A stretch of DNA of 64,000 nt from contig JAYWIR010000059.1 in NCBI GenBank assembly GCA_036172245.1, positions 372,001 to 436,000 of the forward strand. The letters are read 5' to 3'. Positions 1,292-49,088 of this stretch are shown piece by piece. Both the position numbers and the translations under genes were made by a program. Below the pieces are notes generated by a model, which was given only the letters and a program-made list of their open reading frames with translations, ran no database searches and was not told where the DNA came from. Source of the DNA: Raillietiella orientalis (lineage: Eukaryota). The first letter of the stretch is position 1, and the number at the start of each line of letters is the position of its first letter.

Positions 1292-1485
1292 AATCTCTGT
1301 CCTCTACATCGAGTCAGTCGAGTGAAGGAAGCGTCGCCACATCTTCAGGAACTTCACTTCAAAGGGATCATCAGAATCTAGATTTCAAGCTCCTGGTTGA
1401 CCTGAACAATGGGTCAATCCACTCCGTTCACTTGGTAGCCATCAATATGCAGGAGAAGCAAGCCTGGATCAGTGACATCATTCAG
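1292..1485 (+). CDS. RasGRF: RasGRF exon (end of second PH domain)
   Basis: ttgcag|aatc ... [11 protein letters not shown]...[19 protein letters not shown]|gtaact. Confidence 0.9.
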
Positions 1486-4400
1486 GTAACTCGATTGTCA
1501 GTCCTCGGAGTTGACCATTTCCTCTCCAGTGCGTGGATAACATACAGTTTTACTCTCTGCTACATCGCAACTCTGGTGAATTTTCAGCTGTGGCTCTTCC
1601 TCATTCGGTTCGCAATGATCCAAAGCTCTTCAAAGATGACGTTGACATTCGCTTCAGCAAAACACTCAATTCATGCAAGGTAGGAGTCTCCAACGCGTCC
1701 GCTTCCCGTTCCTGCTGCCGTTACTGGTGGCAGCTCCTTGTTTGCCTCGAAGTTTTCATCCCATCCATACAGCTTATTTAGCTAATCTTTGATTTAATTA
1801 TGGACTGCTTAGCAACGGTACATGACATGCTATCTTTATCGAAGAAACCCTTTATTTATGGTACATTATCATTGTTGATTATGTAGTTATTGGATAGTAT
1901 GAGTGAAAAATTGAGTTAATTTTTTATTTTCAAAATAAATAATTCAACCGAAAGCATCCATTCGCCCTAAAGCAAAATGAATAGGAGCATCGGAGCATCG
2001 ATGGGAATGATGTTTTCCTAAATTTCCAACACCCGCCACGCGAGAGAAAGCTTCGAGTATCCTTGTCCCAAATTCGAGCTTTTAAAAAACAACTCATCTT
2101 CAAGCGATCAGGTTTGAAATCATCAGAGACTTTAGAACCTGAGAATTTCCGAAAAACAACGATTGCTCATCCCTTTTTTCATGCTTCATACTTCTCACAC
2201 TACGGCTTTACACCCATCTCCTTAGAGGAATTGTCGATCCCCTCTACTAAACAAGCCTGACGCTCCTTTCAACTGCGTAAACTCTCCACATTCCTAGAGA
2301 GCTCACGTAGAATTTCACATTCTCACATAGTCATGAACCTTTTGTAGAACCAGCAACAATAAACTGATCCCCTGAAGCCACAGATCACAAGAACTTCGAT
2401 CTGGTCAAAGAGCTATCAAGATGTTCGATGGGTGGATGCTTAGAAGCAAGGTTGAAGCAAATATCTTGTACACGCTTGCATCCATTTTTGTTATTTGCGC
2501 GGTAATGTATCATGCTGGGGTTTCTTTTCGGTACGTGTGCGTTTGCATCGGAAAAAGTATAAAAAAGTAGAAATTCTGTATTCCTTACCAGTGATCATTG
2601 AGACCAACATTTGGAAAATGTGAAGTATATATCACAATTATCACAATTCTGGTAGTGAAAGCTTTGTTTCAGTTTTTCTGACTTAGCGCAATGTGATCTC
2701 GTTGATGCCACCTCGACAGATCAGATCTTCGCGTGAGAAACACGTGAATTTATTCTTGTTCTTCAATGCAGTCCTTCTCAGGAAAGAGGAGGGTATCCGA
2801 GTTTGCTTCCGCCGGAGGTCTGTAATCAGGCGTGGTCGGAAAAATGCCATCAAGATCGCCATCGCATCAGTACCATTTCAGCTGCCAGTGACTTCGAAAA
2901 CAGACCGTGTAGTTTATGATCTCCCAGTGCGATCACCATTTAAACACTAAAAGATTTTAGATCAGTTCTGTAACAGCCCTTAGTTTTTTATTCACCTCAG
3001 GGGATTACGAGGAGATTTCTCCACCAGTTTTTCAAGCAGTGCATGTAAATCCACCGTAAGGGGATATCTTCTTGGATTGCGTGCAGAACATTCAATTTAT
3101 CTAACGTAAATGGGATTTCTTTAAGCAAACATTATAAGAAGTTTCATCGATTTCAGGGTTTTTATATGAAAAATCAAAAAATAAACCTTTTCTTTGTGAA
3201 AAGCTAAAGTAAGTGTTTTGCTTACTCAGAAGTTTCGCCTTGCTATCTACAAAACCACTGATTTTGAAAAGAACTTTGTCTTGCAAAAATTTCGGGAAAT
3301 CATTAAGATCTCTGCAGATGTATTTTATTTTGCAGGTACCTCAGATACGATATGCAACTCCAGAGAAAATACTGGAAAGGTTGACGGATTTGAGATTCCT
3401 GTCTATAGACTTCCTGAATACATTTTTGCTGACTTATCGTGTTTTTACCGATGGTCTCACCGTTTTGCAAGCACTAAAGAAGGCTTATCAAAAAGCCGAG
3501 ATCCCTGAGTACATTTCTGCTTCCACTAGAAGTTCAGTCGTGTAAGTTGTACGGTTCTCAACCTTGTATCAAACTGTATTTCTAATACTTACTTTCGTGT
3601 TTTCCTATGTGAATTCCATGCAATGATTTCCCTGAATTGCTGAAAAGAGTTTGTGTGGTGTAATGATTACTAAATTTCGTGTAACTGTAAGTTCCCTGAA
3701 AAGACGGTAGTGGAAAACATTCTGTATACGAATGACCCCCAAAACGGAATTCAGTAGGCTTAATGACTTTTTTAAGAGCAAGGCAATGCAACACGTTGTC
3801 GTCTCGAAGACGAATGCTACTTCAACTACAATATGATACATGCAAAGGTGTCTTCAGAGACCGAAAAATATTCGCAAGATAATATTCTTTATGAGCATGA
3901 TCGTATCAATATATTCTTCCGACAGAACATAATATCGAGCACACAGGAGAATAATTCGAAGTATCCCATTTTTCACACGACAAAGAAAAAACGAGGTAAA
4001 GTGTTAACAGGAGACACTTAGGAAATTCGGTGCACACGGTTTTTTTGAATCAAATCATTGAGATGAACAGAGAGCTTCGGTGTCTTTGTGCGTCAACGAG
4101 AGTTTAGCATTTGAGGAGCCCTATTGTTTTTTCCCTTCTCTTATAAAAGATCGCTACTTAACATTGAGTATACAGCTGGAATCTCATCTGTATGCGGCTT
4201 GTAATTTCTTCAAAGCTCACTTCAGATTTATTCATTTGCATGCAGTCGCTCTGGTTCCTGAGACTCCAGCTGTTCGGATACAGTTTCTGGTTATACAATA
4301 AGTCAGTATTGCCTTCCGTGTATCGTTCTTGAAATACCAATTGGAGTAGTTCTTTGGAAAATTAGTTCTTGGAAAGTTTGGAATCAAAGATTCACTTATT

Positions 4401-7400
4401 TCAAGGCACCTTGGATTTAGAGATACAGGATATCATTCGATGGTATATTCACCAACAGTTTAAGAACACAGGATGTTATCAATCCGTTAATCGGGGAGCA
4501 TACTGTTCAGAACGCCTTTCAGAATAACATACACTAACCTGAAGGTTAAGAAATTATTCTATTCATTCCTGAATCTATGGAGGGAAACTTATTCATGGTT
4601 GCGCCTCCTCCTTTACATGTGTTTCATGAAGAATCCGATAATCTCGATGCCAAGCAGCCTACATCAGATATTTCCTGCCTGCCTGTTCAATGAGCTCTCA
4701 TCCATAGAAGCAGCTTGCTGCTGCCTGGAAGATGGGAAAACGCCATTCTTTAGCATTAGTGCCTGCAAAGCTGTTGTCTTTGTGTTATTCGAGACATGCA
4801 GAGCCAAATGAAACTTCTTCGGTTTCCCGTAATATAGTTTGCAGCTTTATGTATACGAAGAGGCTCACGAAGCAGCAGGGGAACAGGATTTCCGCAATCT
4901 CTCTCATATACAGCAATCAGATTTGGCAGTTGGAAAAGCTTCTATTATCCATTTCATCAGGAACTGAGAGGCGAGCCTTCCTGATCACAAAGACTTCAGC
5001 TGACCTCCTAGTTGTCATAACTCGTTCACACCAAGCTTTAATACTACCTCGATGGCTCCCTTCTTCCACGCTTAATGTACGATGCTTACTATGCGGTTAG
5101 CATGTGGAGTGATCTCTTGGCAACAAATGACAGCCCTGGTTCAACTGAATATGATGAGCTATATGATTTGCACTTTCGTTTTATTAATCGGCCTACATTC
5201 TGTGTTCCAACTTCCACTGATGCATTGGAAATCTGTAAGGAAATCTGTAAGCCTTCTTGTAAGCTTAAGACTGTTTTAATTTGGCCGCTTGTGCTAAGCC
5301 AGAAGTGTTGCATATTGTAACGCCCTTCCTCTCAGACCGGATAATTCTAAAGGTTTATCGCAGGAAATCGCACTTGTGTGCTTTGTGGTTCCGCCTTTCT
5401 TCCTTCTTCTTCACCTGCTCTTCTCTCTCCATTAACGGCAATCCCTTTTGATTCCATCCAAATCTTTGGGAACGCTACTGCGCACTCATCAGTCTTGCTT
5501 TCTTACTGTTCGAATGCTCGCTCGAGATGACTTCCTTCCCGAGAGTGGCGTGCGGCCATCCCAGATCGCATACTGATTTGCATCCACTTAAAGAGAGCCC
5601 ACATCCAGTTTCTTTGGGGGTTCCTCTCTTTTCTTGGAATAATTCAAGCTGTTTTCGGTTCTGGGTAGAGCTCGTTCTGGCCGTGTTGTGAGCGCATGCA
5701 GCCGATAATCATGCAATGCGGCTGCGACCTGCCTTTTTGCTAGGGAATGCTCGTCTTTGATGCGATTTGCTTCTCTCGGAGGTGAGAGCAAACTGATGTT
5801 GGATCGGAAGAGTCTCAAGTTCTTCTGTGCTGCCGACTTTGAGGATGGATGCAGCACGAAAGGTTCCGTTTCATTCCGTGTGATGATGATGATGCCCAGA
5901 TGGGATCTTTTTCAACTGGGAATGGGTTTCTAAAGCCTGTTCCATTTTATTCACCAGAAAGAACTAGTCTGACTCTCCTTGGTACGTGAATATGATTCTG
6001 GAATAATGGAACACTCTGAATGATTTGTTCGTGATTCTTTGAGATCGGACCATGGCTGCTGCTTTTTGCAAATCTCTGCTTCAGCCAAAAAGGTCCTTTT
6101 TTTTTTCCGGATTCATCGAACCCTTGCTCTTCGGATTTTTGAAAGAAATGCATCCATCAGAAGACAGAGACACACTGTGGCTCGTTTGCTCAATCTGCAG
6201 TTTGATTGTCAAGTTTTGCTTTCATCCCTCAGCTCAGGAAAGCCTTGAATCCTCGAATCTTCACAATCAGCTTTGAAAATTCCACCTCATACGAATCTAA
6301 GCGTTCTTGACGCTTTGCACAAAACTTCTGTCTTCCGGATACTCCCAGATGTTCACACCTGCTGCTGTGTTTCTTTGCATCCACGTGTTTTTCATCTCGT
6401 TTCTTTGCTTTCCGAATGCAACTTGAACTGATTCTGCTGTCTGGTTTCCACCTTCATCGATGGGTACGTTATTTGCGTTCGATGTGGCAGCAGCAGTGGA
6501 ATCGACGTTTTGTCTCCTTCGCACCCTGTATGACGTTGCTCACTGCCAACGCGAAATTCAAGTGAAACGCAATGTGAAGGAAAACAGGCAAAATGAAATT
6601 TCGATGATGGTGATTTATCGAAACATATGAAGAGAGTGCGTCAACGGATGGCAATTTTAAATTCTCCGAAATGGAAAATACCTTGCTTGGAGATCACAGA
6701 AGCCAGGATCATTTTTTTTTTTTTTCGTCCAGAAAAAAAGAAAAAAAAGAAAGCAGCACTGTAGTCGTAGCATCACGAAACGAATGAAGACGCCATGGAC
6801 GCAGGACACGATTAATACGGATGCACGACAACTCAGCAAATGAATAGAGAAAAAGGTAACCAATAAACAGGGCTCATTTTGCCTTCCGAACACGGCGCTC
6901 ATGATGAATTCCACTGTTCCATGTAGGCAAAAGATGCTTAAGAAGGAAGCAAACAAAATGCGGAAGTCGGTGGGAGGAACAGAAGCCACGGAGAAACGAT
7001 GGAAGATAACGCTTGATTCGCCTCTGTACGTGAAAACAACCCTTTCCGTCTTCTCATTGCGAGAAGTACACTTTTTCATCTATTGACCCAACGAACAGCT
7101 GCCAGGAGTTTGCGGAAAGTGGAAATTATTGATTCATAGTCCGAAAATTCGCTACCTGCCCAGTATGGCACGGCAACATCACTCTTTCTGAGCAAACAGA
7201 TCCCGGCAGGAAGTCGCTGCAAAAAGAGGGATGATACATCTCATCGGTTTCTTGCGAAATTCAGTTCATCTCATCCAGGGATTCCATGGTGTTTATGCGT
7301 GATCGGACAATGTCATACAGATGAGAGGCTGAACGTGGCTTCCCAGTTAAAAAAAGAAGTGATGGCTCACGGCAAACGAATGGGCACAGGAATAACGAAA

Positions 7401-10400
7401 AGTAAAGGATGAATATCGAAAAGCATCCACCGTGGCCCCACACCCGCGCTGGAAGCCTTGTGGCTGCGGTCCCAGCTCGTAGCACCAAGAGCCGCGGGGT
7501 TTCGAATCTCTACGTGGAGGATCGAAACCCCGAGACACGAGCACTTCTTGGGTTTTTGAGTCCCTCCCGCAAGATGACGCTAACTGGCCCACGCGCTCCG
7601 GGTGCAGCACTGGTGACAGCCGGAAATCGGATGCCTATCCGTTGACTGGCCGAGATCGGAAGTCAGCCCTCCGAGGTGCTTCCAGGAATCAAGGAGGTTT
7701 CGGTATTCCCCTCTGGTTGTGAAGATGGAGCCGTCCATCGCGTACTATGGAGATGGTTAATATCCCCCTCGAGGGGTCTCCTCTCCTGAGTGTAAGAAGC
7801 GCTCTGCTCCCTTCAGAGAAATCGAGGAGCTCTCTTCGGTGTTTCCTTTAGAAGAGCACCAACAAGGAGCGGGTTCCCCCAGTAGAAGGAATTCCGGGAG
7901 TCCGGAACCTTTTCGAATTCCGTTCGAAGGAGAAATGAGCAGTAACCTTACTTCGAGGACCCCTCTGGAAGAAGAAGGAGATTGCCTTTGTGGTTCCCAT
8001 AGGAGACAACCAGGACGAGGATTCCCAAGCGTCAGAGGAACTGAGTCCTCCTTACGGAGCCTTCTTGGATTCATAAGGTGGTCCCGTCCCGGATGACCCC
8101 TAACTTGAAGAGCTGACACGCACCCTCGGGTGACGTGAACGGTCTGGAGAGCTTCGTGAGCCCCTATGAGAACAGCTCTTGAGTACTTAGCAGACCAGAA
8201 AAAAAAAGTAGTATCCGTGAGCTCTAGGAATTCACAGGTTAAATGACTGGAAAACGATCATGGAAAAATAAAAAATGGAGTTGTGGAAGAGGCGAATCGA
8301 AACTCCACTCGATATCAAAAATCTACTCTTCGTAGCACTTTGGAAGCTTCTGGAGACTTTAAGAAACGGTGGCAAGTGCATAGCGCCATCATCACCGTTG
8401 AACTATGGAAACTCCGTATCAAAGACGAAAAGTCCAGAATACAATCCATGAGCAGATGCTTTGTTTCGAGATCAGGCATGGCAATCTGATTATTCCTTGC
8501 TTTCTTCTCGACACTCATTGCCTTTTCGGCGAAGGTGTCCTCAGGTAGCGGCTGTTGCCATTGAGATGAAAATCACGTTCCTGGATATCTGCGCTTGTTC
8601 GCTTTTTATTGTACGACTTCCACCTCCTGCTGCATGCAGGTGTTAAGCACTTCTTTGATGGAAACAAAACGGGGCATTACCGGAAACTCCCGGATGGAAC
8701 GAATGGAGTGAATGAAAAGAACTCTTAGAATCGAAGATCCCTGACTGAATGGACTCTGATCTTTGGGGTACCAACGATTCAAAAAAGTCTTTTTGAAGTG
8801 CAAAATTCACCACTGATCTTCTCAGATCACGAATGGTGCACCATGTTGCCGAAGCACTGCACCTATTCCTAGATGCCTTTGATACTTTTGCATCCTTTCT
8901 AATTCGTTCCTCCCTCCTTCCGCCTTCTTGAGACTTTTTCAATTGCTGTTATCGAAATTCCTCTTCCCGCTACTGCGAATTCTAGGCATGACCTAGAAGT
9001 ACATAAAATTTAACCGCTGGAAATACTTACAGTTATGGAAGGAAAGGAAATTGGAATGGAAAGCGGTGCACCCACCAAGTTTAAAGTCGACTTTCCTTTG
9101 ATATGACTACATCCGGCATTCGTCCTATGGACAGTTGCTTATCACCTAATGGAGTGGACAAGAACTAGACACCTTGGATTTTGCATGAGCGTGTGGAGGG
9201 AAAAGAGACTTTTTGACTAATTCACAAGATAAACAACTTACCCTTGATTTTTGATCCAGTAAGTTTCATTAGAAGGATACAGCTGGAAGCAAGAGCACGC
9301 AAAAAAGCGCTATCTAGACAGACGGGACAGCAAATTTGGAACTCTGACCATGAATTTAGAGGAGCTATCCACAATAAATGAAGGATCTATTTCTCGAACA
9401 GGGAACTCGATCCCAAGTTAGAAAGTTCTAATGGAATTGGGCAAAAGAAAGAAAAGCAAAAGTTCCTAATTGGATGGGGAATATTCAAGTAGAAACTGGA
9501 TGCATAAATATCAAAAAGGAACGTGGATTTAGAGTTTCATATCTTAACACTGAAATCTCGTGAAAAGAGTAGATAGAGCATTCTATATACAGTGAACAAA
9601 ATCATAAGAGAAAATCCAAGCGGAAGGAGCATTTCTTCGGATTTCCTTTGACCTTTTGCGGAAAAGTACAATGTGAACCACAAACGCTGGTAATTGTAGG
9701 CATCTGGTGATGGACTGAGCGGAGAGACAAGAACGCACCTCGCACAGCAAATGCAAAAGCAAATGCCTGAACTTTCTTGGAACTTGAAAGCGAAAATCTT
9801 TTCTTTTTGTCTTCCGTACAGATCTGATGCTTTCGAGATTTGGATGACCCGTGTTCGCGCTCACTCTAATTCGAGAGCATCAACGCCAAATTGCTATTTC
9901 TTCGAACACAACGAGATGAAACTATGAACGGACCTCTTATCCACTTGGAGGAACGTAATCGATTGGTCGATCCATCTACGCCATGGATCTATGGCCGATG
10001 GAGAAGCGCCTACCTAAATTTCGTTGCATGATCTCAACAGGTTTTTGTGCCTTCACGTTACCGTGGGAACCAATGCGTTTGCAGCCAAATTCCTCGAGTC
10101 GAAAAAATAATAACAAATTTTGGGAAGCACCTTCAGATCCGGTCGCGTTCTCTTTTGTTTAATTGGTTGCCACGACTGAGAAAATCGGAGCTCGTGATGT
10201 GTTTTCCTTCCGACGAAAGATTCTTCCAGAAATCCCCTTCCGCCTTACTGTAGGAGATGAACAGGTAGACGCGCACTCTTGTAGGAAGTTTAGGGAAAGG
10301 TCCTACTATCAGCGGAGAAAAGTCTCAATCAAGTGAGGTCGAGCGGTGTGCTAATTCGGCAGCCTTGAGATATCGTGACTTTTAGAAGAAAGCGCAGGAC

Positions 10401-13400: not shown

Positions 13401-16400
13401 GGAGGTTGAGGTGCTCGCGAGTGCTTTCAAAGTGAAATATGCAGCTAGGTCGCCCCGTGCATAGCTCTTTAAGTGTCCAGTAGGCGGATGCAAGGTACTT
13501 CAGGGAGATTTTTCGAGCTCAACGATGAGCAAGTGCCCGGGATCTCCACGGACGGAACGAGAATCACCCTCTGGACGAATCCGTCTTTTGGACGCCCTGT
13601 TCAAGAGACGGATTCATCTGGGTGAATCCAGAGTGATTTTGAACGCGGATGAGAGCGAGACAGTGATGGTACTCTGGAAAGTTCTTCTTGGTGACGGAAG
13701 ATCTTCCGTTCGAACGAGGGCCGGAGGTGATGCCGCACAGCCACACGCACTCACACTTAGCAGTTGGACCTCCAACCAAGCCCACGTTTCCTGGGCTCAG
13801 CAAGTTCTCGCGAGATTTCACATCTTTTGACATTCTGCCCGAATTTGCATGATGTAAGCATGCATCGCGTTGGCCTTTCAGGCCTACGCGATGCATTTTA
13901 ATTTTCATTTCAAGGAAATGAAAATTAAAATGCCGCGAAATTTTTTGCCTCCAGAAACACTTGGAGTATTTCTCTAAAAGCAGTTCCGATCTTAGCATGT
14001 TCTACGCGTGCAATGGTACGTATATGATGAAACATCTTGTCAATTTTTCGCGATAAAAGAAAATTTGATGCATCAGCTCCAGAGATTAGAAACACTTGGG
14101 TTATATTAGTTCAAGTCTTCCGATGCATTCATTTTTTAAATGAGGATTTCAAATCTTTGCGATTTTTTCAAAGTTGCTCCTGTTTGGTTTTCCGTGAATA
14201 GTGGTTGATGGCATTTCGCAGCGTTACCATGAAAGCTACCTTTCTGTTCAAACTTACGATGAATAGCCAGCAGTACCAGCATAAATAGATTATGATTTTT
14301 TTTAAAAAAAAAGAAGTATTTATATTATAGACACTTCCAGGGAGACGTGGCAGCAAATTTGGAACTCTGACCATGAATTTAGAGGAGCTATCCACAATAA
14401 ATGAAGGATCTATTTCTCGAACAGGGAACTCGATCCCAAGTTAGAAAGTTCTAATGGAATTGGGCAAAAGAAAGAAAAGCAAAAGTTCCTAATTGGATGG
14501 GGAATATTCAAGTAGAAACTGGATGCATAAATATCAAAAAGGAACGTGGATTTAGAGTTTCATATCTTAACACTGAAATCTCGTGAAAAGAGTAGATAGA
14601 GCATTCTATATACAGTGAACAAAATCATAAGAGAAAATCCAAGCGGAAGGAGCATTTCTTCGGATTTCCTTTGACCTTTTGCGGAAAAGTACAATGTGAA
14701 CCACAAACGCTGGTAATTGTAGGCATCTGGTGATGGACTGAGCGGAGAGACAAGAACGCACCTCGCACAGCAAATGCAAAAGCAAATGCCTGAACTTTCT
14801 TGGAACTTGAAAGCGAAAATCTTTTCTTTTTGTCTTCCGTACAGATCTTCCGCATCAGATTCTCACGTAATAGTGGGACTAGTATCAAAGTATCCATATT
14901 AACCCTATATTTTTTCGTCAAATTTAGATTTGAATTTAAGAAATCGATTTGTAGAGATCTTTGGAAATTTTGCGTCATTGGGAGATAATGAGTGAAACTA
15001 CTTCGTCACTTTTCCTTATGAAATAATCTGATGATGATCTTCCAGCATTCATTTGGAAACAAGAAAACTTACAATGGGGTCGTAAGAATTTTGAGCGATG
15101 TTCATGTCGAACCTCGCGGAGCCAAAGAAAAAGAAAGGAAAGAGGTTAAAAGGCAATATACTTATTAAGCTTCCACATCTTTCGGCAACTGCTTTGGGAG
15201 CACTGCATGACCCGCAAGGAGGCTGGACTACGCAACGATTGTGGCACACGGTGATCGCGGATGACTGTCGTATCTCCAGAATTCAACACTGCCGATAGCT
15301 AAAAATTCCTCCCATGATGCGTTTTTTGCGCACACGTTTTGATAGTTTTCCATCCAAAGATGAGCGTTAAAGCGATCTCAACTCTTAGATAATGGCGTTT
15401 CTTCCAGAAGTTGCTCACATTCCCAGATAATAGTAGTCTTTCTTGAAAGAATAGAATTCAAAGCCAAGTCAAATTCCGGCTTTGAATCCACAAAAACTGA
15501 TACTGGGTATCTTTTCTTTCACATGAAAGCTTTAATACCAGTGGGTTTCTGAGAAGTTGATTGCAACATACATTGCATCCTGATCTTTTGTGCATCTTGC
15601 GGAGAATTTCTCTGCCGTACAAAAAGTAATGCTCTTGCTGAGCTACAGGGAGAAAGTTGAATTATTTGAACTGCAAGGGAGGGGGGGGGGGGGAGTTGAG
15701 AACCTCCAGTGAATGCAGAGAGTTTTTTGTTTCTTCGCCGCGATCCCGCTGCTGCAGAATGCAGATGCATCCGTCTGCAGGTATTTTCATCGTAAGAGAA
15801 GTATGGCACAACGCAGTCCACGCTACCGAGCTATTGATGCAACTGATACCTGGTCATGCCCTACAGAGGGATGGAACCTGGGGCAGGTACGATGCAGTCC
15901 GTATGGATACGGATGACCAATGTTAGCATGACTCCAGAGTCACTTTGAGCGAAAGAGAGGATCCAAAATTCACTGCTCCTGAGCCTCCTCTATGGATCAA
16001 CTAAAGAGTTTTAGAGTGTCGACTGAAATTTACACTCACGATGCTCTAGGGCGCCTTGTCGGTTCCCTATTACCTACGAATGATTCTTCACCATCTGGCA
16101 ATCATGCCTCTAGTGACTCCCTTCTTCAGAACTGAACCGCCGAGTGGTGCAGAACCTGAAATCTAGATTTCACTCCCACTCACTTGTCGCGCACGGATTC
16201 CTTGCTCTTTGATCGATGTTCAAATAATCGCTTTTTTAACTACGCTGGCTGACGGAAGTTTTTTCAGGGTCGGAGATTTTGGATACGCAGATGTCTCGAA
16301 CCCAACATTGGAGATGGAGCTTCAGAAAATGTAAGCAGATTTTCTTTTTTTGTTATCATTATAATATTTCCGTGCGGAAAAATAAAACATCTCTTGTTTT

Positions 16401-19400
16401 TGTGGAAAAGTAAAAAATTTTCTAAGGACATCTTCGCGCTTGTATTTTCCTTCCCTTAACGGTTTGGCTCTCTCTTTCGGCTTCAGATGTGCTTCGTTTG
16501 CAGCCTGCGATCCTCTGAAACGTCTCACAGCATCATCTGGCAAATTATCAAACGATTTTTCGCAAACCTAAGACAACAGCTTTGGAGAAAACCCGTATTT
16601 TGAGTTTAACATGGTCTTATTTGTTGCTTTGGTCCACAGATGGAGCCTGGGGTATTCCCATGTTCAAAAAGAAACAACTTCATTCGATGTGCAAAAAATC
16701 CGCTTTCCTTTGGCAAAGTCCATTTCCATCAAGCATCTGATAGCACGTGACAAGAATGCTTTCTTATTCCACGCCATCCTTCAAGATCACTTTCCATGTC
16801 TTGCCCTGTTCAAGCTTCCGTCCCACTTCCCAAAAATTCAATGTCGCTCCTCGGATTTCTTTGGAATGCTCAACACCTCGGGATTTTTTGCGTGTTCATT
16901 TTTGGAGAACACGGCAGGCCCATCAATCATGGTGGCGTGACTCGGGGTTGACAAAGAAAGAAGCAGACCGAAGAGATGTCTTGGCAAACTTCACCCCCAC
17001 TCTCGTGTCGAAGCATCTTCACAGCTACGCTGCAGTCCTGCGCCACTCCGGAATCGCGGATACGAAGGTTCCAATGGTTCGCACAGGGAATCCTAGATCC
17101 CACCCCCATGATTTCGTGCGGTACTCTCTGCCAATGCCTGGAATTCTCCTTCAAGTTCCCTTGTTTTTCGGCATCATCTGGTGAGGACGATGTGCGGTGG
17201 CTCCCTGATCACCAACGTCTCACTCAGCCTCTAGGGGTGCTGCCGATTCGGAAACGTTCGCCAAGAGTTTCCACGAATTTCCGCGAATCGCAGTTTGCTC
17301 ATCCCGCGGACGGAAGAGTTCGAAGTATTCGATTCTTCCCACAGTTTGCGCCTAGCACCTTCAGCCTGCCTAGCCCGATTTAAGGACGGGCAAAGGGATG
17401 GACCACTTCCATGTTTCTTCTGTTTTCCCGAAATGACGAGACCAGAGCGCATGCTTATTTTCCCTATTTACGAGGCTTCCTTTCAGAAGAAGAAGAAGAA
17501 AAAAGGGCATACGTCCAGATTTCAAATTATCCCAGCTTTCAGAGATCTTTTCCACAACAACACGAGTTCTTTGACTTTTGCCTTTCCTGGTCCGAGGTCT
17601 AAATAGGGGAACCAGCAGGACCGTATTCTTGGCAGAGACGCTTTCGCAAAAAAGGATCAGGCTAATTAGCTACGAAGCAGCCGGTCCCTATCAGCTGGGA
17701 TTCGATTAACCCGGTCGTATATGATCGATTCGTTGCGCTCTAAGGCTGTTTCTCGAGAGCCACAGATAAATGTTGCAGAGTTTTTTTCTTTCTTTTTTTT
17801 TTTTTTGCATTTTCAGATGAGGAAGAAAAGAGAGACAATCGAACGGAGATCAGTCAGCTGAATTCCCATTCGTCGCAACTAAATGTGTCCTCCGCGGTGG
17901 GTGCCATTAAAGACGAGGCCTCCCTCCAGGAGAAAAAAAGAGGAGACTTCTTGCAGATACCTCCCATCATGACCGATTCGAGCAGCGCGGAGACACTAAC
18001 AGGTATGATGTTTGACGAAAGTCACTTGATGAAGCACTCTCGATACTCGGAGAGCACGGATTCCCCGGTTCGTGGTTTGTCTCTTTTCCCTCCTCCTCCC
18101 ACCTCCCTTGGGTATACATGCGACACAATCCCCACAGCTACCAACGTCCCGATGCTCTTCCATCTGGGAAACATCGGCGGGCGTTTCAGTTAAGCTGGAA
18201 TTTGGTGATACTCCCCAGCTTCCAGCGCGAGGACCCTGGGTTTCCGAACGAGTGTGTGAGACGCGCTGGGAAAGCATGGCTGCGTGATGGCTAACGGCAT
18301 TTCTGTGACCTGCGCCTCTTCGCCTCCTGCTTTACCGTATTTGAAAAGGGAAACCGAGAGGAAATTTAGCCTTGACAAAGTACGTCCATGAAAACGGGAT
18401 GACCTGGAATTAGTGGAGAGGAGAGCCTCTCATCCTGGTTGTGTTTTTGTTTCTACTACCCTCTCTCTCACTAGAGCCCGTTTCCCTTTTTTCGCAGAGG
18501 CCCTTATCCTTGGGGTACTCGTGCAGACGACTCCAACTAACCCTGCCTCCTATGCCTGCAAGTTCACCACGGATCAGACTTATCAGATTCTCGGGATTTC
18601 CATGGAACAACGGGAAGAAGACCTGATAGGGAGAAAGTACACGTCTTCGTGTCCAGGAAAGGGAGTGAGCGGTTAGTGACCCAGAGGAAGCAGCTTTTCC
18701 GGACCAACATTTAGAATATGCAACTTTCCAACAAAAGAAGAGTAAAATAACAAATACTGGGAAATGGAGGGAAGTCCACGTAATGGGGGCTAACAAAAAG
18801 ATCGACCAAGTCCACACAGCTCGCCCGTTCCTGATGACGAATTTCCAGCTTCCTTTGGAAACTGGTGCGGATTATGCAGTCGCGGGAACGAAATCACGAT
18901 CCTTTATCCTTGGAGTACGGTGAGGCAGAAAGGAACGCCTTCAAGGGAATAACAGGCAGTAGGAAGCACAGAGTTTCACTTCAGTTGAGGGGCTCGAAGA
19001 ATCAGGCGGTCTTGCTTTCCACAAAAGGGGCATCCATTGCGTGATTTTGCTCTCAGAACTGCTACTGGGAGTCATAGTGAAGGTATACGAGTGGGAGATA
19101 ATTCCTCTCCGAGAATGCCATGAGCAAAAAGGTAGCCGCAAGCTGAAAACGTCTTGATCCTTGAGACACCCTCACGAGATTCCCATCTTGCAAAGTCCCA
19201 GACTGTGTCCAATGGCAGGGGAAGCACGCTGAGTGCAAAGAGTTAGCCACAGCAACGAGTCTTTTGATTTTCTGCTTTGTTCCTGTCTCTTAACTAAGAC
19301 TAAGACTTAGACTCTCTTAACTACTTAAGAAATCTCTCCATTCTAGCTCATGTCTTTCTGAGGCTTCCAGAAGAAACTGAAAGTTCCTCAAGATGTCATC

Positions 19401-22400
19401 CCGGAAATAAGAAACTCACAGGAATGGGACTTCTCTTTATTGCAAATTTCTCGTTTTACCAATATCTGTCCTGTTCCTCTCAGGAGATGACCTCTTCATT
19501 GATCTTTTTAAAGGAAGCGATCCTAACCTACCTCCGAAAGGTGCGTCACGCAGGGCAATAGGCAGAGAGCATCTGAAACAAGAAGTCAAAGTATCTCATG
19601 GTTCAAAAAACTTCATATGTTATAAGATCCATGACTGCAGGATTGATAAAAGTGATATGGAAGGCACTGAAGGTGCCATAGAGAGCACGATTCCCAGCGT
19701 CTATAACAACAATCCCGGCTACAGGAAAGAAATTTAGTGGAGAGAGGAAGTGCTGCAGCTAAGAACAAATAGGAAAGTTCCATGTGGCGTTGAGTATAAA
19801 TGGCAAAAAATGTGTAGATGCTAAACTCCAGCTATGGTGTTGCCTACTCCGACGACTATGGAGCTTGAGGTTTGCTCGAAGAAGTTAACTTTCAGCACGC
19901 TACAAAAGCGCTAGATGCAGATGGGGCTTATAATAGACCCGAACTTTACAAATCGTGTAAAGGATATGATAGAGAGGCAAAAATTCTATCAAAGAACGGT
20001 GCTGCATAATATGAAAGAGTGGACAATATGTCTGACAGGAAAATCACCATTAGGGCGACAAGATCATGAGATAAAGAAGGAAATGCAAAAGAATGGGAAA
20101 AGGAAGCAAAGAGTTCTTGCATGGAAGAGATGGAATTCATCAGTGCGTGCAGTTTCTGAAGATTTTCAGTGGGATTGCTTCATCGGCCGCCCTACAACGA
20201 CCCTACTCCTGCCGTCCAGCATGCTTTCCGAAAGCACGACTTTTACTTCAATTCGCAATCACTTTCGTTCCAGATTAACTATGCCATAGAGCAATCCGCG
20301 AGCCCATTTACTCACCTTGATAAGCTGCGTTCAGTTTTTCTGATCTGACCGACGCGATGATCGGAGACCTTCCAAGGGAGGAGTCATCAGAGAGATCGGC
20401 TGCAAAGCATGCGTGCCCGACACAGCTAGGCTGAATCCTTCCCGACTCATTCCAGATTTATCTCTCGATTGATCTCAGAATTCATAATCCTGCCATTGAG
20501 TTTCCTCGGAATAGGCTGGAGTCACTCCAGACTCAATCTCTGCATGCAGTTTTCTCTTAGGGCTTTATACCTGGAGACAGAGATCATAAGAGAGCTTGTA
20601 AGGGTCGAGTCAGAGAATTACATTCTTTTCCTGTTTGAACGCTAAGGAGGCGCTCTGTTTACCAATGTATCACTTAGCTGCTAAGGGTGCTGCCGATTCG
20701 GAAACGTTCTCCAAGAATTTCCACGAGATGCATAGATGCTGTTCTTTTCCGATCAAGCACAGAATGGCTAGCGACTTGTCGATGTCTCTTCCTACAGGGC
20801 ATTTGACTAATCGTCAGCAGCGATGATGAACAAGTTTTCATGTCTTTCGAAACCTTCAAGAGAAACACGGGGTATCTGATCTTGAGGTCGGTTTTTCCAT
20901 TTTAAGGTCATTGATGAGAGATAAACGCTCCTTGGATTTTTTTTCCCTTTCTGCTCCTGACCTCTTGGAGCAATATGACAGCTGTGATTGTGAAGATCCT
21001 GCTAATGAACCAGAGAATTCCCGGATGGGTGAAAGCGAAACGAAGTGCTCTGGGCATGAGATGGAGTGGTCTGAACCTGCACATCTCCCAGATGCTTACA
21101 AATCTCATCCAAAGGAACTTTGGTTTTATTCAGAGGAGAGTGCATCAATTTTTCTAGTACTTCTCCGTTATGCGCCCTTTTAAATTTGCACATCTCATTC
21201 CACATTACTGGCTCCTACAGTTCTCGAGATCATACTGTTGCTGATTGTCAGTGATGCTGTTCTATCACACTGAAAGCTGCAATGATTTTTTTTCCTCCTT
21301 CCAGAAAGCACAACTTCGAACCAGGAAACCATTCGGAGCAACAGCACTCAGACTTTGACAGAATTCACGGCGAACACGGAGCTTGCTGCCAACGATTCCA
21401 GGAAGAATGCAACCCAAACCAAGCTTCCCCCTGATAAGGTTGGTATTGCCCTTGCACGGATTTTTATCCAGTCCAAGATCACTCTGGAACTCCAAACTAC
21501 ATGTTTCTCACGGTTGTGCACACGCAAACGTGTTTCCGGACTCACATGACCTTCTTCTATACATCCATCTGACTCCTTCTCTATGGACACCTTGTCGTTC
21601 CATGCACTTCCAAATAAGGACTTTGATGGGAGTCCATCACTCCTATTAAGCCAGACACGGAGGTCCTCTTCATTTTCCCTTAATTTGCTGACTGTGTCCC
21701 CTGAAGCTAAAAGTCATGTTTTTTACCAAATAGGGGAACCTCACGTGTTCTTCAGCCTCTTGTGCCTGCGCTCATGGGCTTGTTGTCTCCGTTCAAGTTC
21801 ATGGTAGCTCATTGTGTCTTTTCGGTTTCTTGATTGCCCCACTAACAGCTCCAGGAGAGCTTTTGGCTCACAGAGCACCGATTTTTTCAGACATGAACAC
21901 TGCGACTGTCTTCTGGGCGTGCGAAAGCATTTCTTCGGCTGTTTCGATTGCTGCAATGCACTGTCTTTACAGAATTTTTTTTTTCCCCGCTTTACTCTCG
22001 GCAAACCCGAACACGGAGCTCAGTCATGAAATCAGCTGACTGCAGAAGACCGATCCTTCGCAGTCTGATCCTGAACGAAAAATCCCTCTCTCCTGAAATC
22101 TGAGGATCGTTCACTAAGCCGAGTAGAATTCTCCTTCCTGCTTAAGAAATACTGGGATTTTTCCTTCTGTCTTTGCCTCCACTTTCATCCCTTTCTTTCT
22201 TTCTTCGGAATCTTAGCTGAGACACCTCTTAAACGGCAAAGTCTTGAACTTAATGATGCAAGTTGGTCTTGTTTTGATAATCACTCTAACAATAGAGATG
22301 GCAGTGCCATGTGGGAAGCACTTGCTGCCACAGTATGGGATCTCAGACCTCTGGCAGCAAAATTCACGTGAGGTCACTCGAACAGAGAGCACAGTAGGGC

Positions 22401-25400
22401 TCTGTATAGCGCGAGCCGCGTTATAAAAAAGCGATTTATACAAGCCCTATGGGTTACACACGAATTATATGATGATATTTTCTTGCCCTTCCGGCACCTT
22501 TTTTTGAAAATCCATGAAGAAGGTTGAGTAATTTTTAAAAGATAAAATTGTATTTTAAGCCCCGTGACAGTGGAATATTTATTATTCCACTTTAGACCGA
22601 AACCAAAAAAATATAAGCGTATTTATTTACTATTTAATTTAAAGTAAAAAGAAAGCCATTAGAGTTTTGCTGATGCTCAATGGATTTAAACAGTACTATA
22701 GTTTCAGTTTTATCGGTCTCATTCTTAAACAGTTCAATCTACCTACATGAACCAACCTACCTACATGTGTTCATGTTCTTTTTAAGCACAGATGACATGC
22801 CACAAGAATAAAAGTAACCCACAGTGTCTTAAGCGTAGATCTGCTGCCTTTTCTTCCTCCTCACGAGCCTTCTGATTGCAGTGGATAGATGCATGCTTTG
22901 CATCACTCCTCCTGTGTTGCTTTCTTGCCCTTTCGGCATATTTTTTTCGAAAATCCATGAAGAAGGTTAAGTAACTTTGCACTCGGAAATCAACCGTGGA
23001 TGTGCGTGGGCTCCTTCCGTAGCTCGCCAAGACCGGCAGCTCTGTTCATGGAACTCCCCGGGAATCCAGCTGTTACTCGCTCGTGGTGGAATCAGACATT
23101 CCTGCAGCCACGCAGGAAATTCCTGTTTCATTGAGTTGCATTTGCATTCTCAATCTGTATTTCGAGGGTACAACTCCTATAAGGTCGTCAAACTGACCTC
23201 GCAATCCGCTTGAAGGTTCTGAGGAAACATAGAAGAATCTTGAGCGCCACGGGGCATCCGGTGGAAATTGGATTAGGCTTCTGTCCTTTTCTTGCGAGTT
23301 TCCAATTTTGCCCGACGACCGCAGCCGTTTGAAACCGAGATTCGATTTTGCTCACTCTTTATGGGTGTTTTCAGCCGAGAGAAGCGACGAACTTCAGAAC
23401 GCTATTGCCGATGATGGAAAGTACGATGACTCTCGAGCGAACATGGAGAGAGATTCTCATCGTTCGCAGCAACTCTCCGCACACATCAATTCTACCACTT
23501 GTCATCTCTTCCTCTAAGCTCCTCCCTGACACCACCACTACCATGTTGGCTAGTCTTCTCTTCCTTTAAGCCTCCTCTTACTACCACATCACACCGAACG
23601 GTCCTCACTTTACATTGCCCGATTGATAGCTTCTCGAACCCACAGAGGGCAGTTGGGAAACCATTCCTCTTTGAGAATGCCTGAGGCAAGAAGCTGACTA
23701 AGCTGAGAACACCTTCATCCCTAAAACCTCCTTCCCCATCCTGCAAAGTCTCAAACTGCATCTAACGGTAGGAGAGGCTTTATGAGAGCAAAGAGGCAAC
23801 GAAGCGAAGCGCCCAGCAGAAACAATTCGTGAATTTTTCAAGCTCATTCCCTCAAGAGAGGCATAAGAAAGCAAACGAACGAGCAAACACTGCGTTTCCC
23901 GCCAGGCAACCTTCCTAAATCACTCTCCAGGACACGCTGACTACCCCTCTGATTTCCGCAGCCCAAAAACGAGAACAGGCTTCTCTACCTCGCTGTTCCA
24001 TAACATCGGAAGAGTCACTGCCTACGGTGCTTATCCGAGATGCCCTGCTTTCAGACCGAGATCAAGGTGTCTGTGATGCAACACAAGGAGGTGTTTTTTG
24101 GAAGGAAGACGGATTTGACGGATCTCGTGGAAAAGGCATTCAAGAGGTCCCGTTCCTTTTCCACCCCTGATGAGAGCCTCGAGAAGCTGCCCGATTGTAA
24201 ACTTCCATTGCTTTCATCTGAGAGACACAGCAAGAGCAGTACCACCCTGGCTTCTCGGTTGTTTGGCAGCGACGAAAAGTCCAGCCTGATGAACACGACT
24301 ATCTCGCCTCAGATATTCTCCAAGGGCTCCTCTCAGGTAGGTGCAGCTGAAAATTCCATTTTTTTTTTCTATAGATAGGTCACACGAGGAAAAACTACTA
24401 CATGAATGGAACGACTCCACGAGGCAGCTACCACCATCGGGATTCTCCCAAATCCAGTAAAGTGGGAGTGGTAGTCACTTCTTCCCGTCAGTCACAAAGA
24501 AGGCAAGCATTCTTCGAAACCACCTTGATCTCAGGGCGCAGACGCTGGATCCAGTTTTAGAGCGCAGATTCCTTTAACATTCCTCATCACTGCCAAAGCA
24601 TCCTCTACCTCTCATACCTTTGTTCTGTTCGTGTTTCACTTTCTTTCTCACTACAACTGATCCTCTGGAAGCAAATAACGTCCAGGGAAACTATGTCTGG
24701 TGGTTCTTCTCCAGTAGAATCTGAAGAATAAGGTCATCTTGAGGTGAGCTGCAAAGGCCAGCTGCTGGAGATGGTCACCTAATTTTGTGCTCTGAAACTG
24801 AAAAAACCTTATTCATCGAAGACGGCGAGTCTTGCAGAAAGTCTTTTTTCGGCACAATGCTCTTTGAGATGCAAGAATTCAGTGAGACCTCCAATGCATT
24901 TCGTTCGATGAGTAAGCACTCCTTTGTCCAACTAGGATTACCGAGTGGGAGACACACTCTGCAGCATCGAGATATTCAAGTCAAGTAATCATCGAATCAA
25001 TTAGTCCATGGAGAAGTACTTGGGTGAGATGTTGTAGCCAAGAAAAGACTCTTGTTGCTATGGATAGAAAACTGAAAAGACCTCTAAAGATCATCAGGAA
25101 GAAATTTTCATCAACAGCGAATCGCTTCAGTTTGTGGTTATCTTGACAGATATTTTCAGATGGGATAAGTCAGTAGGGATAAGAATTGGAGCACATGGAC
25201 GTTTAGAGGTATTTATGTGCTCCAATTGCTGAAGATCACGAAGCTTGCAAAGGACGCAGAATTTTTTCTCTATACATCAAGCTTGTAGACCATTCAAGAA
25301 ATATGATTGCCAAACCGGTTGAAGTGGACTGCGGCTCCCTGGAAGAACAGTAGAAATGAGGAATGCCAAGTGCCTCCCCCCAAATGACAAGTGCCTGTAG

Positions 25401-28400: not shown

Positions 28401-30915
28401 AGAATCCATAATAGCAAGAAGTCATCAGTAACTGCTGAATCATATCTGCCCACATCGCAGGATACAAGATCATATCGAATTTGCGAGTGAACTATGAAAC
28501 CGGGCAGCATGATTGCGGCAGGAGTGGTTTGAGAAAGAGGAAGAGAGGGAAGCAGTATTCGTGGATTGTCCATTAGCATGGCGCTTTTTTTATTTATCAC
28601 GACGTAAGTTCTTTTGCATGATGAACTCCGGTTCCACGTGCTTCTGGATCTGTTACTTGCTTTCCTATGAAAATGGAAAGCATTTGTGAACTCTGATCTT
28701 TCTCGGTTCACAAAGGTTTTAAGGATGTAAAAACCTATTGTGCTTCTCGCTTATATAGTGGAGATGGAATGATGCTTTTCTTCTTTTCCTCTTAGGAGCA
28801 GCACATCTTCTGCGGCATCCGCATTCGCAGTAGCTACAGCGGCTTCAGGAAATCCAAAAGAGCCGTTTACCCCTCGCCTCAGCAGGAAGACTGGTTTGAC
28901 TTCTGCCTCTAAAGAAAAGACCAAATCCACAACTGAAATGTTTGTATCGACTGCTGTTTTGATGAGAGTGCTAAGCGTCCTGCGCCATTGGATCTCGAAA
29001 CATCCACAGGTAAGGGTTTCCAAAATCTTTCACAATGGTTTCCTTCTTTCTAGGACTTTGAACAGGACACTCCGTTCAGAAATTTCACCATTGAATTCCT
29101 TGAAGACATAATAGGAGCACCTAACATTCTTCCTTCTGAGTATAAAGCTGCGTCGCATCTATTAATGCTGATTACAAAAGAAGCCCCCGCCCATAGCAAA
29201 GTTGACCTGAACTTGCTTCTAGCTCCTCCTTTGGTGAGTTCTTTCTGCCCTTTCGATGAAGATGCCTAGCAATCTTCCGTTCCCATCCGAAGACCCCCAC
29301 GAAGGAATCAGTGGAAACCATCAACGCTATTCGCATAGCAGAGCAGATGGCTTATCTGGACCACAAGATTTTCCTGGCAATCAGGAGCGAGTAAGTTCAC
29401 ATCTATGCTGAAAATCGCTGTCTTGATGCGGTGACAGTCGTTCGGCTGCTAACATTCAAGATGAAAACTCACATTCAAGTGCTGAAGTGGGTTCCCGATA
29501 TAAATGAACAACAAACCAGTCCTAAACTTTCTCCATTTTAAAGCGATGTTTGGAAAGAAATTAGATGAAAATCATTATCTTGAGTGATGCATTCAAAGCG
29601 CAGATTCCGCCTGTCGAATGACGAAAAGTGAAGTGACGGATCGCTGAACTCTTTGTTTCGTTGGAACCAAAGAAACACTTTCCAGCAGCAACGTTTATTT
29701 ATAAGCCTGTTTATTGGATCAGAAACTGATTGAATAAATAGGTTTACATACGCTGTCGTAAATTTCTTGTCTCACTCAAAGTAAATCGGTACTTGGCTTG
29801 GCACGCCACATTTTTCAGGCAGCACCATGGATCGGTTTACATAGAAGCGGGCGAGAAATAGCCACGGGTCAAAAGTACGGTGCGTGAATGAAAGCAGGTT
29901 GCAGAACAGTGATGAATTAGAAAATATCAAAATAGCAGCGGATTAGAATCGTATTGAAAATCTATAAGATCGTTTATACGAAATAGTGCTTGTGTGTTTG
30001 GAAAGAAAATGAGCTCATCAAAGAACTCAGACAAGGATCGGTCTCCCTTTTGGAAACCAAAGGAGAATTCAGAGTCTTTTTCCAAAAGAGAAATCGTTTC
30101 TGGATGGAATGACTCATTTGTTTGATATTTCGTTCACTAAGAGTGCCATTTGTTTTGTGAAGCACTTAGAAATTTTTGTATATATATTTAGATACGTATG
30201 AAAGCTGACCATTTTTTTTTTGTTCGAAACAGAAGCATCTTGATAGTAGACTTGTTATATTAATTTGAATTTCTTTGCTACGGGAAGATAAAATAAAACA
30301 TACATCTAGATATTTCTTGATCCAAAGCAGTGCTGTGCATTCCAGGAATGCTGACCTTACAAAAATGCAAACATTGCCATCACTCATTCCTTTATCTAAG
30401 AGTAAAATCCCAATCGAAGAATCCAATTCTAGAGAAGTAAATTCTCAAAGCTGCTGGCCAGATTAGTAGAGCGTACAGGAAAAAGGAATCGCTAACGATA
30501 TGGAAACAGAAGGTTTCTTCGTGGAGTAGTCGTTGAAGGCTTTGATTTGATACCCATTGGTCCATTAATATTGGAAAGAAATTCATTCGCTCTGCTTATG
30601 GCATTAGACAACAGAGAATGGCAAGACTACTCTTCGGTGTAAGTTATCTCGAAAAGTATGAGACTTTCCGGACTGATATGCCGAGAAAGATAGCTCACTT
30701 AATAGCATTCAAAATAAAGGAGACAACCAGGGTGGGAGGTGCGATCCCCCCCGTCCGGGGGAATCCCTCCTCAAGCGTGAGAGGAACGGACTCCGAGCCC
30801 TTCCTGGATTCATAGGGCGGACCCCCATCCCGGGGTGCCCCCTATCCTGAAGAATTACACGTCCCCCTGCGGGTTGCCGCGGGCGGAGGGGCGTGGAAAC
30901 AAAATAGTGTTTAAT

Positions 30916-30962
<47 letters not shown>

Positions 30963-37254: not shown

Positions 37255-37421
37255 GATTGCTAGATTCCTGTTATCACAAATAAGTTCTGAAAGCAATTCC
37301 TTGCTTACAACGTAAGATAATTACGCTTACTAATTATTTCTGCTTCAAAATAAAGAAATTTAAATAAGAACTAGTAATGAATTCTTCAAGGTGTCCACAC
37401 TGGTTGCTTCAGAGATCATCA
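37255..37421 (+). pseudogene. Duplicated fragment of a RasGRF intron end plus the first ~31 nt of exon 34727
   Basis: Diverged copy of 34591-34757, including the acceptor ttcaag|gtgtcca.actggttgcttcagagatcatca. Confidence 0.9.
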
Positions 37422-48982: not shown

Positions 48983-49088
48983 GACATTTTGTGAAGATTT
49001 GAATCCGGACAAAATGCCGGTTTCTGAGGGAAACTGGCGTGTGCGAATGTAAATCTGTCTCTGGGTCGGCGCTTCGAAACGAAAAGCA
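48983..49088 (+). repeat. ~105-bp dispersed repeat, copy 1
   Basis: Diverged copy of 51212-51317 (tttgtgaagatttgaatc...ctgagggaaactggcg.gtgcgaatgtaaatctgtctctgggtcgg). Confidence 0.88.

Follow-up and report, generated by a model that had tools for sequence, protein, structure and literature searches.

The 64,000-nt stretch of Raillietiella orientalis DNA analysed here (the window) raises the question of what kind of element has left diverged, GC-rich copies of itself in the introns of a RasGRF-like gene. A sequence-only reading had proposed a large, highly structured non-coding RNA spreading as a retroposon family, its copies shaped by selection on their fold. BLASTN and nhmmer profiles recover exactly three homologous segments in the 64-kb window (A, B and C), lying where that reading had placed them and, as it had said, colinear but diverged (Table 1). 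At 55-58%, their GC content exceeds the 42% of the whole window. A and B are 72% identical (433/598), with BLASTN matches of 74% over 300 nt at 309-585 and of 81% at 95-153, while in the part common to A, B and C the identities are 73/100 for A and B, 60/99 for A and C and 66/95 for B and C. The indels between A and B measure 9, 2, 19, 1, 2, 13, 15, 3, 34, 5, 24 and 3 nt and do not run in multiples of three, bearing out the earlier remark that the copies share no reading frame.

The three segments differ in how much of the element they contain. Copy B begins GATGG and finishes CCAG, its terminus reading ...GTACTTAGCAGACCAG before a short A run, and copy A reaches its 3' end beyond the window start. 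The length of about 840 nt given for the whole family holds for B alone (838 nt) and not for A and C. The homology of A ends about 60-100 nt before the 5' end of B, the first ~100 nt of B (7361-7459) have no counterpart upstream of the point where A's homology starts (P=0.6), and no two of the three copies have a common 5' end. Because a common 5' end is lacking, the copies may be 5'-truncated 3' regions of a LINE rather than an 840-nt SINE-like unit.

Table 1. Positions of the repeat copies, their hallmarks and the surrounding exons in the window
Feature	Position	Strand	Details
Copy A	1-~625	-	Clear homology to B at 1-585, weak to ~640; BLASTN, MAFFT, nhmmer
RasGRF exon	1342-1682	+	
RasGRF exon	3333-3509	+	
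Target-site duplication of B, 5' copy	7349-7360	+	AAAAAAAGAAGT; 11/12 match to 8201-8212
Copy B	7361-8198	+	838 nt, longest of the three; limits set from the target-site duplication
Long hairpin	7496-7531	+	Specific to copy B; self-inverted BLASTN match at 7495-7532
3'-terminal motif in B	8183-8191	+	GTACTTAGC
Target-site duplication of B, 3' copy	8201-8212	+	AAAAAAAGTAGT
RasGRF exon	24405-24509	+	
RasGRF exon	28935-29391	+	
Target-site duplication of C, 5' copy	30712-30722	+	AAATAAAGGAG; 11/11 match
Copy C	30723-31011	+	289 nt, counting the A run inside it; 5'-truncated
42-A run	30920-30961	+	Within copy C; absent from copy B
3'-terminal motif in C	30998-31006		GTACTTAGC
Target-site duplication of C, 3' copy	31012-31022	+	AAATAAAGGAG
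RasGRF exon	33240-33326	+	
RasGRF exon	34718-35389	+	

The exon positions place all three copies in introns of the host gene, a RasGRF gene of arthropod-like character. Among the matches listed for the RasGEF_N exon, 119 of 120 are arthropod RasGRF proteins; the best RasGEF_N score belongs to a fish protein, only through a duplicated domain, and no taxon stands out. Against PDB, mouse RasGRF1 was the sole match to the RasGEF exon, over one 50-residue stretch (E=3e-5), and the exon at 1240-1680 had no match, while a comparison of the TSP1 exon with longer proteins yielded 242 candidates, none of them scoring. Copies A and B lie in opposite orientations on either side of two of the RasGRF exons, and inverted pairs placed in this way can promote the formation of double-stranded RNA or the circularisation of exons.

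Copies B and C carry the hallmarks of retroposition. Target-site duplications, which were scored in these two copies as the 3' end of A falls outside the window, sit exactly at the limits of homology in B (12 bp) and in C (11 bp), and together they are near-intact, with one difference in 23 positions. Both duplications open with A runs and their targets are A-rich, and the duplication around B could in part reflect chance. The two copies end in a common 3' terminus, GTACTTAGC..ACC, of which the motif GTACTTAGC has two matches in the window, in B and C only, where 0.10 would be expected; GGAGACAACCAGG is also present in both. No long poly(A) or microsatellite tail is found on the copies, B ending with about two additional A at most and C with none, and the A runs that follow are duplicated target. 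At its opposite end, C starts 549 nt into the B sequence, at a GGAG common to target and element that makes up the last four bases of its 5' duplication, a microhomology at the truncation junction. B and C thus combine a constant 3' end with variable 5' truncation, with the homology of A stopping short of the start of B. The retroposon family that had been proposed for this locus fits all of these features: the target-site duplications, the common 3' end, the 5'-truncated copy and the lack of an ORF.

The copies look like ordinary, old LINE-type retroposon insertions, and we consider it likely that A, B and C represent one family of non-LTR retroposons (LINE-type, target-primed) inserted in the introns of this RasGRF-like gene. 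An RNA whose 3' end is defined (...GTACTTAGC-RR-ACC, followed by at most a few A) would have been copied by the endonuclease and reverse transcriptase of a LINE, the enzyme nicking an A/T-rich target whose T-rich bottom strand would then prime cDNA synthesis at the 3' end of the RNA. Synthesis would often halt early, as presumably happened with the 289 nt of C, joined via the GGAG microhomology, and a staggered second nick 11-12 bp away would produce the target-site duplication. The visible part would be the GC-rich 3' portion of the element, which holds no ORF. The long hairpin of B contains a 19-nt insertion relative to A that is an inverted copy of the adjoining sequence, and the hairpin-forming indels may generally be inverted duplications of the template-switching type. 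We infer the LINE partner, the details of priming and the argument from age in this scheme: because the duplications are near-intact while the copies diverge by 26-28%, the copies would derive from different source lineages, and their divergence would be largely older than their insertion. Structural selection on several source RNAs, as claimed by the earlier reading, is not upheld by the tests described below.

Searches for coding capacity and for known RNA families had negative outcomes. Pfam gave no matches for the ORFs overlapping the copies (144 window ORFs of at least 85 aa were searched), and none of these 144 matches a reverse transcriptase or endonuclease family, so no partner LINE is seen in the window. 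For the sense ORF of the element there were five protein candidates, none scoring, and an antisense ORF of 166 aa had no matches among 1.84 billion protein representatives. At the Rfam gathering score no family was found over the window, and at E<=10 each copy returned chance-level matches only (for example to CRISPR repeats and to miRNA and lncRNA fragments). Strings of the conserved motifs behaved similarly. The 18-mer AGCCGGAAATCGGATGCC had no matches in viral contigs, and its occurrence in 34 metagenome contigs was dismissed as chance, since BLASTN homology there spans at most 27 nt, the motif itself only; the 23-mer CATCGCGTACYATGGAGATGGTT had no matches in viral contigs or prokaryote genomes. 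Across 8.4 million papers and preprints the motif strings turned up in 13 papers, each time through chance agreement between a single 13-mer and osteopontin primers. The family may take either of two forms, which we judge about equally probable: a 5'-truncated autonomous LINE with a long 3' UTR, or a non-autonomous SINE-like or deletion derivative.

A conventional SINE was considered in this connection and set aside. ARAGORN predicts no tRNAs, and tRNA, 5S and 7SL have no Rfam match at E<=10 in A or B, which agrees with the sequence-only reading, where none of these RNAs could be matched, and speaks against a SINE head of the RNA polymerase III type. The motifs GGTTTCGAATC and GGTGTCGAATC are at most loosely B-box-like, and a tRNA-derived head, suggested by this resemblance and by a possible likeness to a tRNA D-arm, was rejected, as it receives no support from covariance models. 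Runs of T occur inside the element: in B a T5 stands at element position 193 and a T4 at 550, in A a T4 at 444, and a T5 run would stop RNA polymerase III. SINEs seldom exceed about 600 nt and lack internal runs of four or more T, a class from which B was rejected at 838 nt with its T5.

The further idea that the family is maintained as a folded RNA depends on whether structure is conserved between copies. The copies had been described as highly structured; their MFE lies only about 2 SD below shuffles, and it does so on both strands (z-scores of -2.08 for B sense, -1.95 for B antisense and -1.86 for A), just as the alignment folds alike on the two strands (-126.5 on +, -126.7 on -). Perfect small hairpins are not enriched (5 in A against 4.0 expected, 7 in B against 4.9), and most of those in one copy have decayed in the other. 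Nor is it confirmed that the differences between copies preserve pairing, as had been thought: pairs predicted from one copy are disrupted in the other at the rate seen in permutations, with 29 changed pairs kept and 44 broken in A when B is folded at a span of 40, and 16 permutation tests of cross-mapped folds gave P values of 0.009-0.77, one of them below 0.01. Linker motifs listed as invariant are indeed present in A and B, but they carry no sign of selection, the longest A-B identity run of 18 having P=0.48 under random mismatches at 74% identity and the summed length of the top five runs P=0.27.

These results weigh on the main rival, an ORF-less non-autonomous retroelement of ~0.8 kb whose several source RNAs are selected for a large RNA fold, which might for instance let a stringent-type LINE reverse transcriptase recognise the RNA, or keep the RNA stable. 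We regard it as unlikely. Near-intact duplications beside copies that differ by 26-40% speak for it, as the divergence would then have arisen in active lineages, and some of the large indels are self-contained hairpins, such as that at 7496-7531. Local pairs common to A and B number 130, against 111±8.6 in column-shuffled alignments (P about 0.007), and compensatory pairs counted globally come to 17, only marginally more than the 11.6±2.7 of shuffled alignments (2 of 100 shuffles attain this value), whereas local compensatory pairs are not above shuffles (11 against 8.1±2.8, P=0.21). Of 15 windows of 160 columns, P=0.015 was obtained in one for energy and in another for compensatory pairs, and none survives multiple-testing correction. 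A central domain folds at -44.8 kcal/mol, with 2 changes that are compensatory, 11 of GU type that alter one side of a pair, and every pair intact, but its structure was taken from the same alignment that scored these changes, and its z is about 0. Where all three copies overlap, the consensus fold has an energy of -8.0 kcal/mol, and its covariation term, +0.89, is unfavourable. All covariation tests here rest on two or three sequences and have little power either way, and one shuffle control of structure-pair counting, at 134/500, is uninformative for a two-row alignment. A few weak signals, namely the excess of shared local pairs, that of global compensatory pairs and the two windows, lean towards conserved hairpins; A, B and C do not suffice to demonstrate selection on RNA structure, the tests being null or marginal, which is the expectation for an ordinary GC-rich repeat. 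The more specific proposal of a tail-less, ORF-less retroposon of ~0.8 kb, in which source lineages at 60-74% identity keep their hairpins and 3' motif and a partner reverse transcriptase selects fold and not sequence, is improbable to the same degree. Were the covariation true genome-wide, the family would be a natural example of a LINE reverse transcriptase reading an RNA fold; as it stands, the result is routine repeat annotation, that of a non-LTR retroposon family in gene introns.

Two other origins fare worse. That a LINE reverse transcriptase repeatedly captured a cellular structured ncRNA, or else an RNA replicon of viroid, satellite or retrozyme type, and left the copies as its retropseudogenes is very unlikely in our view: the copies are GC-rich, non-coding and retroposed, and the lack of matches to any known RNA family would leave room for an undescribed RNA, but no Rfam ribozyme (hammerhead, HDV-like, twister or others) or small RNA is matched at E<=10 in any of the three copies, and the copies are colinear with one common 3' end and not circularly permuted. 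The motif searches in viral and metagenome contigs likewise stand against it, and near-intact duplications around copies that differ by 26-40% ill fit an origin as pseudogenes from a single conserved gene. A viroid- or satellite-like replicon, once suggested for this locus, is further opposed by the similar scores of the two strands. It is scarcely credible that the copies are not retroposons at all and represent a solo LTR, a DNA transposon or a segmental duplication. B is LTR-sized, and two 506-nt repeats close by, at 9320-9825 and 14343-14848, look like an LTR pair; BLASTN finds no similarity between the copies and this pair, the duplications measure 11-12 bp and not 4-6 bp, terminal inverted repeats are absent, the 5'-truncated copy C has a duplication of its own, and the flanks of the copies are unrelated. 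A solo LTR for B was rejected both on the length of these duplications and on its GATGG..CCAG ends, in place of TG...CA.

The preferred reading, a family of LINE-type retroposon insertions, can be set beside three known systems. The fold of the R2 3' UTR is conserved with little sequence conservation. The R2 protein binds this 3' untranslated region, which is a structured RNA (PMC11194090). The idea of a LINE 3' region keeping its fold while its sequence drifts is common to R2 and to the rival considered above; unlike R2, which is specific for a site in 28S rDNA, the copies described here lie in gene introns at A-rich sites, and no conserved fold can be demonstrated in A, B and C. SINEs and further non-autonomous parasites of LINEs that carry the 3' tail of a LINE are described in PMC3747384 and PMC5135761. 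Like them, the copies are non-coding, dispersed in introns and bounded by target-site duplications, and maybe stem from several source lineages; they differ in having no tRNA, 5S or 7SL head, in the 838 nt of B, in the T5 at 193 and in the absence of a common 5' end. Stringent-type LINEs belong to the CR1, L2, RTE and similar clades. In stringent-type LINEs, as PMC4176376 describes, the LINE protein recognises structure in the element's own 3' tail. The copies depart from this type in that the window holds no LINE ORF, that there is no terminal microsatellite repeat, that the A-rich targets resemble those of L1-like endonucleases, and that 838 nt or more would make a long 3' region. They resemble it in their variable 5' ends, in a constant 3' end without long poly(A), in duplications of ~10 bp and in a 3' region that holds no ORF and forms hairpins close to its end.

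The three GC-rich non-coding segments (copies A, B and C) are retroposed insertions. BLASTN and nhmmer confirmed all three where the sequence-only reading had placed them: with B as query, BLASTN within the window recovered A (309-585, 74% over 300 nt; 95-153, 81%) and C (30772-30874, 73% over 112 nt), the remaining match being an internal palindrome of B, and neither this search nor nhmmer profiles built from the copies found further copies in the window. As that reading had described, the copies are colinear and diverged. A and B are identical at 433 of 598 positions (72%) and are separated by indels of 9, 2, 19, 1, 2, 13, 15, 3, 34, 5, 24 and 3 nt, while in the stretch common to all three copies identity is 73/100 for A-B, 60/99 for A-C and 66/95 for B-C. 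Their GC content is 55-58%, compared with 42% for the window.

The retroposon part of the earlier interpretation holds, based on target-site duplications at B and C, a common 3' motif and the 5' truncation of C. C is bounded by a perfect 11-bp duplication, AAATAAAGGAG, and B by AAAAAAAGAAGT and AAAAAAAGTAGT, which match at 11 of 12 positions; the duplication evidence rests on these two copies, as the 3' end of A falls outside the window. B and C end alike, in GTACTTAGC followed by RRACC, and GTACTTAGC has two matches in the window, those in B and C, with 0.10 expected. The 5' junction of C lies at GGAG, found in both the target and the element sequence of B, and such junction microhomology is typical of target-primed reverse transcription. 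Neither B nor C ends in a long poly(A), and the A runs that follow their 3' ends are part of the duplicated A-rich target.

Positions of the copies, their flanking duplications and other features of the window
Feature	Coordinates	Strand	Remark
Copy A	1-~625	-	Runs off window start
Copy B	7361-8198	+	
Copy C	30723-31011	+	
Target-site duplication of B	7349-7360 / 8201-8212		
Target-site duplication of C	30712-30722 / 31012-31022		
AT-rich stretch, then 42-A run	30900-30961		Inside C; both absent from B
Direct repeats, 506 nt	9320-9825 / 14343-14848		99.6% identical, 5023 nt apart
Two-copy direct repeat	34587-34760 / 37251-37424		93% identical
Two-copy direct repeat	48983-49088 / 51212-51317		92% identical
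Two-copy direct repeat	17196-17276 / 20646-20726		84% identical
RasGRF exons	1342-1682, 3333-3509, 24405-24509, 28935-29391, 33240-33326, 34718-35389	+	tblastn of 120 RasGRF proteins
Very short RasGRF introns (examples)	29009-29054, 34927-34965		About 38-45 nt
Long RasGRF intron	3509-24405		21 kb
ADAMTS-like TSP1 exons	53.5-55 kb	-	Pfam

A unit of about 840 nt had been proposed, which describes B (838 nt) and no other copy. The first ~100 nt of B (7361-7459) have no counterpart upstream of the start of homology in A (best local score 17, null mean 17.3, P=0.6), so the three copies have three different 5' ends: C is 289 nt long, B 838 nt, and A begins at the equivalent of ~740-780 nt before the 3' end of B. 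In this they look like 5'-truncated LINE copies, and a separate non-autonomous element of 0.8 kb may not exist. No reading frame is shared, as first noted, every frame being broken by the A/B indels. Among the 144 window ORFs of at least 85 aa, Pfam matches at or above the curated cut-off fell only in host exons (RasGEF_N, RasGEF, TSP1), with three further matches below their cut-offs; no reverse transcriptase or endonuclease was found in this set, and ORFs overlapping the copies had no Pfam match. A search of 5.8 billion clustered proteins with the sense ORF of B gave 5 candidates, of which none scored, leaving it without a relative there; an antisense ORF of 166 aa had no match in 1.84 billion representatives.

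ARAGORN detected no tRNA, and Rfam 15 gave nothing at gathering score and chance-level matches only for each copy at E up to 10, bearing out the initial failure to match tRNA, 5S, 7SL, snRNA or RNase P/MRP; no self-cleaving ribozyme was seen in any copy in the same search. Viral, metagenome and prokaryote collections and papers likewise yielded nothing for these sequences. The sole hint of a polymerase III SINE is a loose B-box-like GGTTTCGAATC; the 838-nt length of B, its internal T runs (T5 at element position 193, T4 at 550) and the lack of a tRNA, 5S or 7SL head all speak against it.

The sequence-only reading had gone further, proposing a highly structured RNA under selection, possibly a captured replicon, in which differences between copies preserve pairing; these three copies support neither the selection nor the capture. 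Minimum free energies lay below those of dinucleotide shuffles (20 each) by about two standard deviations, alike on both strands (z = -2.08 for B sense, -1.95 for B antisense, -1.86 for A). Perfect hairpins (stem at least 5, loop 3-8) showed no enrichment in either A (5 vs 4.0±2.1) or B (7 vs 4.9±2.2) and sit at different places in the two; in C the count was 8 vs 1.8, but it includes several redundant hairpins of C-run/G-run and A/T-run type. When a single copy was folded and its predicted pairs were checked in the other, changed pairs were mostly broken, as in permutations with the substitution spectrum preserved: for B folded with span 40, A kept 29 changed pairs and broke 44, and P ranged from 0.009 to 0.77 over 16 tests, one of them below 0.01.

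Joint folding of A and B with RNAalifold gave -126.5 kcal/mol globally vs -115.0±6.9 for column shuffles (6/100 as low), with 17 compensatory pairs vs 11.6±2.7 (2/100 with as many), and the reverse strand gave -126.7 and also 17. Local pairs common to A and B numbered 130 vs 111±8.6 in shuffles (P about 0.007), with no enrichment of compensatory ones (11 vs 8.1±2.8, P=0.21). Across 15 windows of 160 columns, the best energy P was 0.015 and the compensatory count reached P 0.015 in one window, none passing multiple testing. The central domain, the best by eye (-44.8 kcal/mol and 52 pairs, of which 2 are compensatory and 11 have a change in one partner), had z of about 0 in this test, and the region common to all three copies reached just -8.0 kcal/mol, its covariation term being unfavourable (+0.89). 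Some hairpins were probably present in the ancestral sequence; in our reading, selection for them cannot be demonstrated from two or three copies, though it may exist, the power of such tests being low.

The invariant linkers, also cited as a sign of constraint, are real as motifs but give no evidence of it; their run lengths are at chance level. Over the 552 aligned positions that start at GTGGCTGCGG, A and B share 74% identity, and the longest identical run, 18, is unexceptional with mismatches placed at random (P=0.48; five longest together, P=0.27). Variance among 20-nt windows is raised (P=0.002), the low windows adjoining indels where alignment is uncertain. A number of the large indels consist of inverted duplications by which hairpins arise or grow longer, such as the 19-nt insertion that makes 7496-7531 in B a 15-bp imperfect hairpin, and template switching accounts for these equally as well as selection. 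The AT-rich stretch and A run within C may stem from a nested insertion or a template switch, or be an A-rich loop that has expanded.

The copies all lie within introns of a RasGRF-like gene, B and C sense and A antisense to it; the gene has very short introns beside very long ones. Among the matches listed, its closest relatives are all arthropod (70-87% identity over the RasGEF_N exon), with no single taxon standing out; in the PDB the RasGEF exon matched mouse RasGRF1 only, over one 50-residue stretch (E=3e-5). One fish protein among the RasGEF_N exon matches (P0001, 'unnamed protein product') has two copies of the PH-end/RasGEF_N segment, identical in the alignments (residues 32-171 and 294-433); this is probably an assembly or annotation duplication, and it inflated the score. 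A and B form an inverted pair flanking the first two RasGRF exons of the table, with complementary arms of 48-116 nt that are 77-84% matched; inverted repeats within introns can pair into double-stranded RNA or promote the circularisation of exons. Elsewhere in the window, the 506-nt direct repeats look like LTRs of a young ~5.5 kb element, and ORFs of at least 85 aa between them have no gag or pol match in Pfam, so this may be a non-autonomous LTR element. The two-copy direct repeats are probably other interspersed repeat families.

Finally, the duplications at B and C together differ at 1 of 23 positions and the copies by 26-40%. Neutral decay from one master predicts duplication halves as different as A and B, or ~6 of 23; the binomial probability of at most one difference is about 0.01, a value biased by the recognition of duplications through their similarity. 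We therefore infer that most divergence probably arose among active source lineages, a pattern that alone is not evidence of selection on structure. The family is new only in being unmatched to a described one in Rfam 15, the collections searched and papers. Divergence among active source lineages is usual in LINE and SINE subfamilies, and A, B and C look like an ordinary non-LTR retroposon family.
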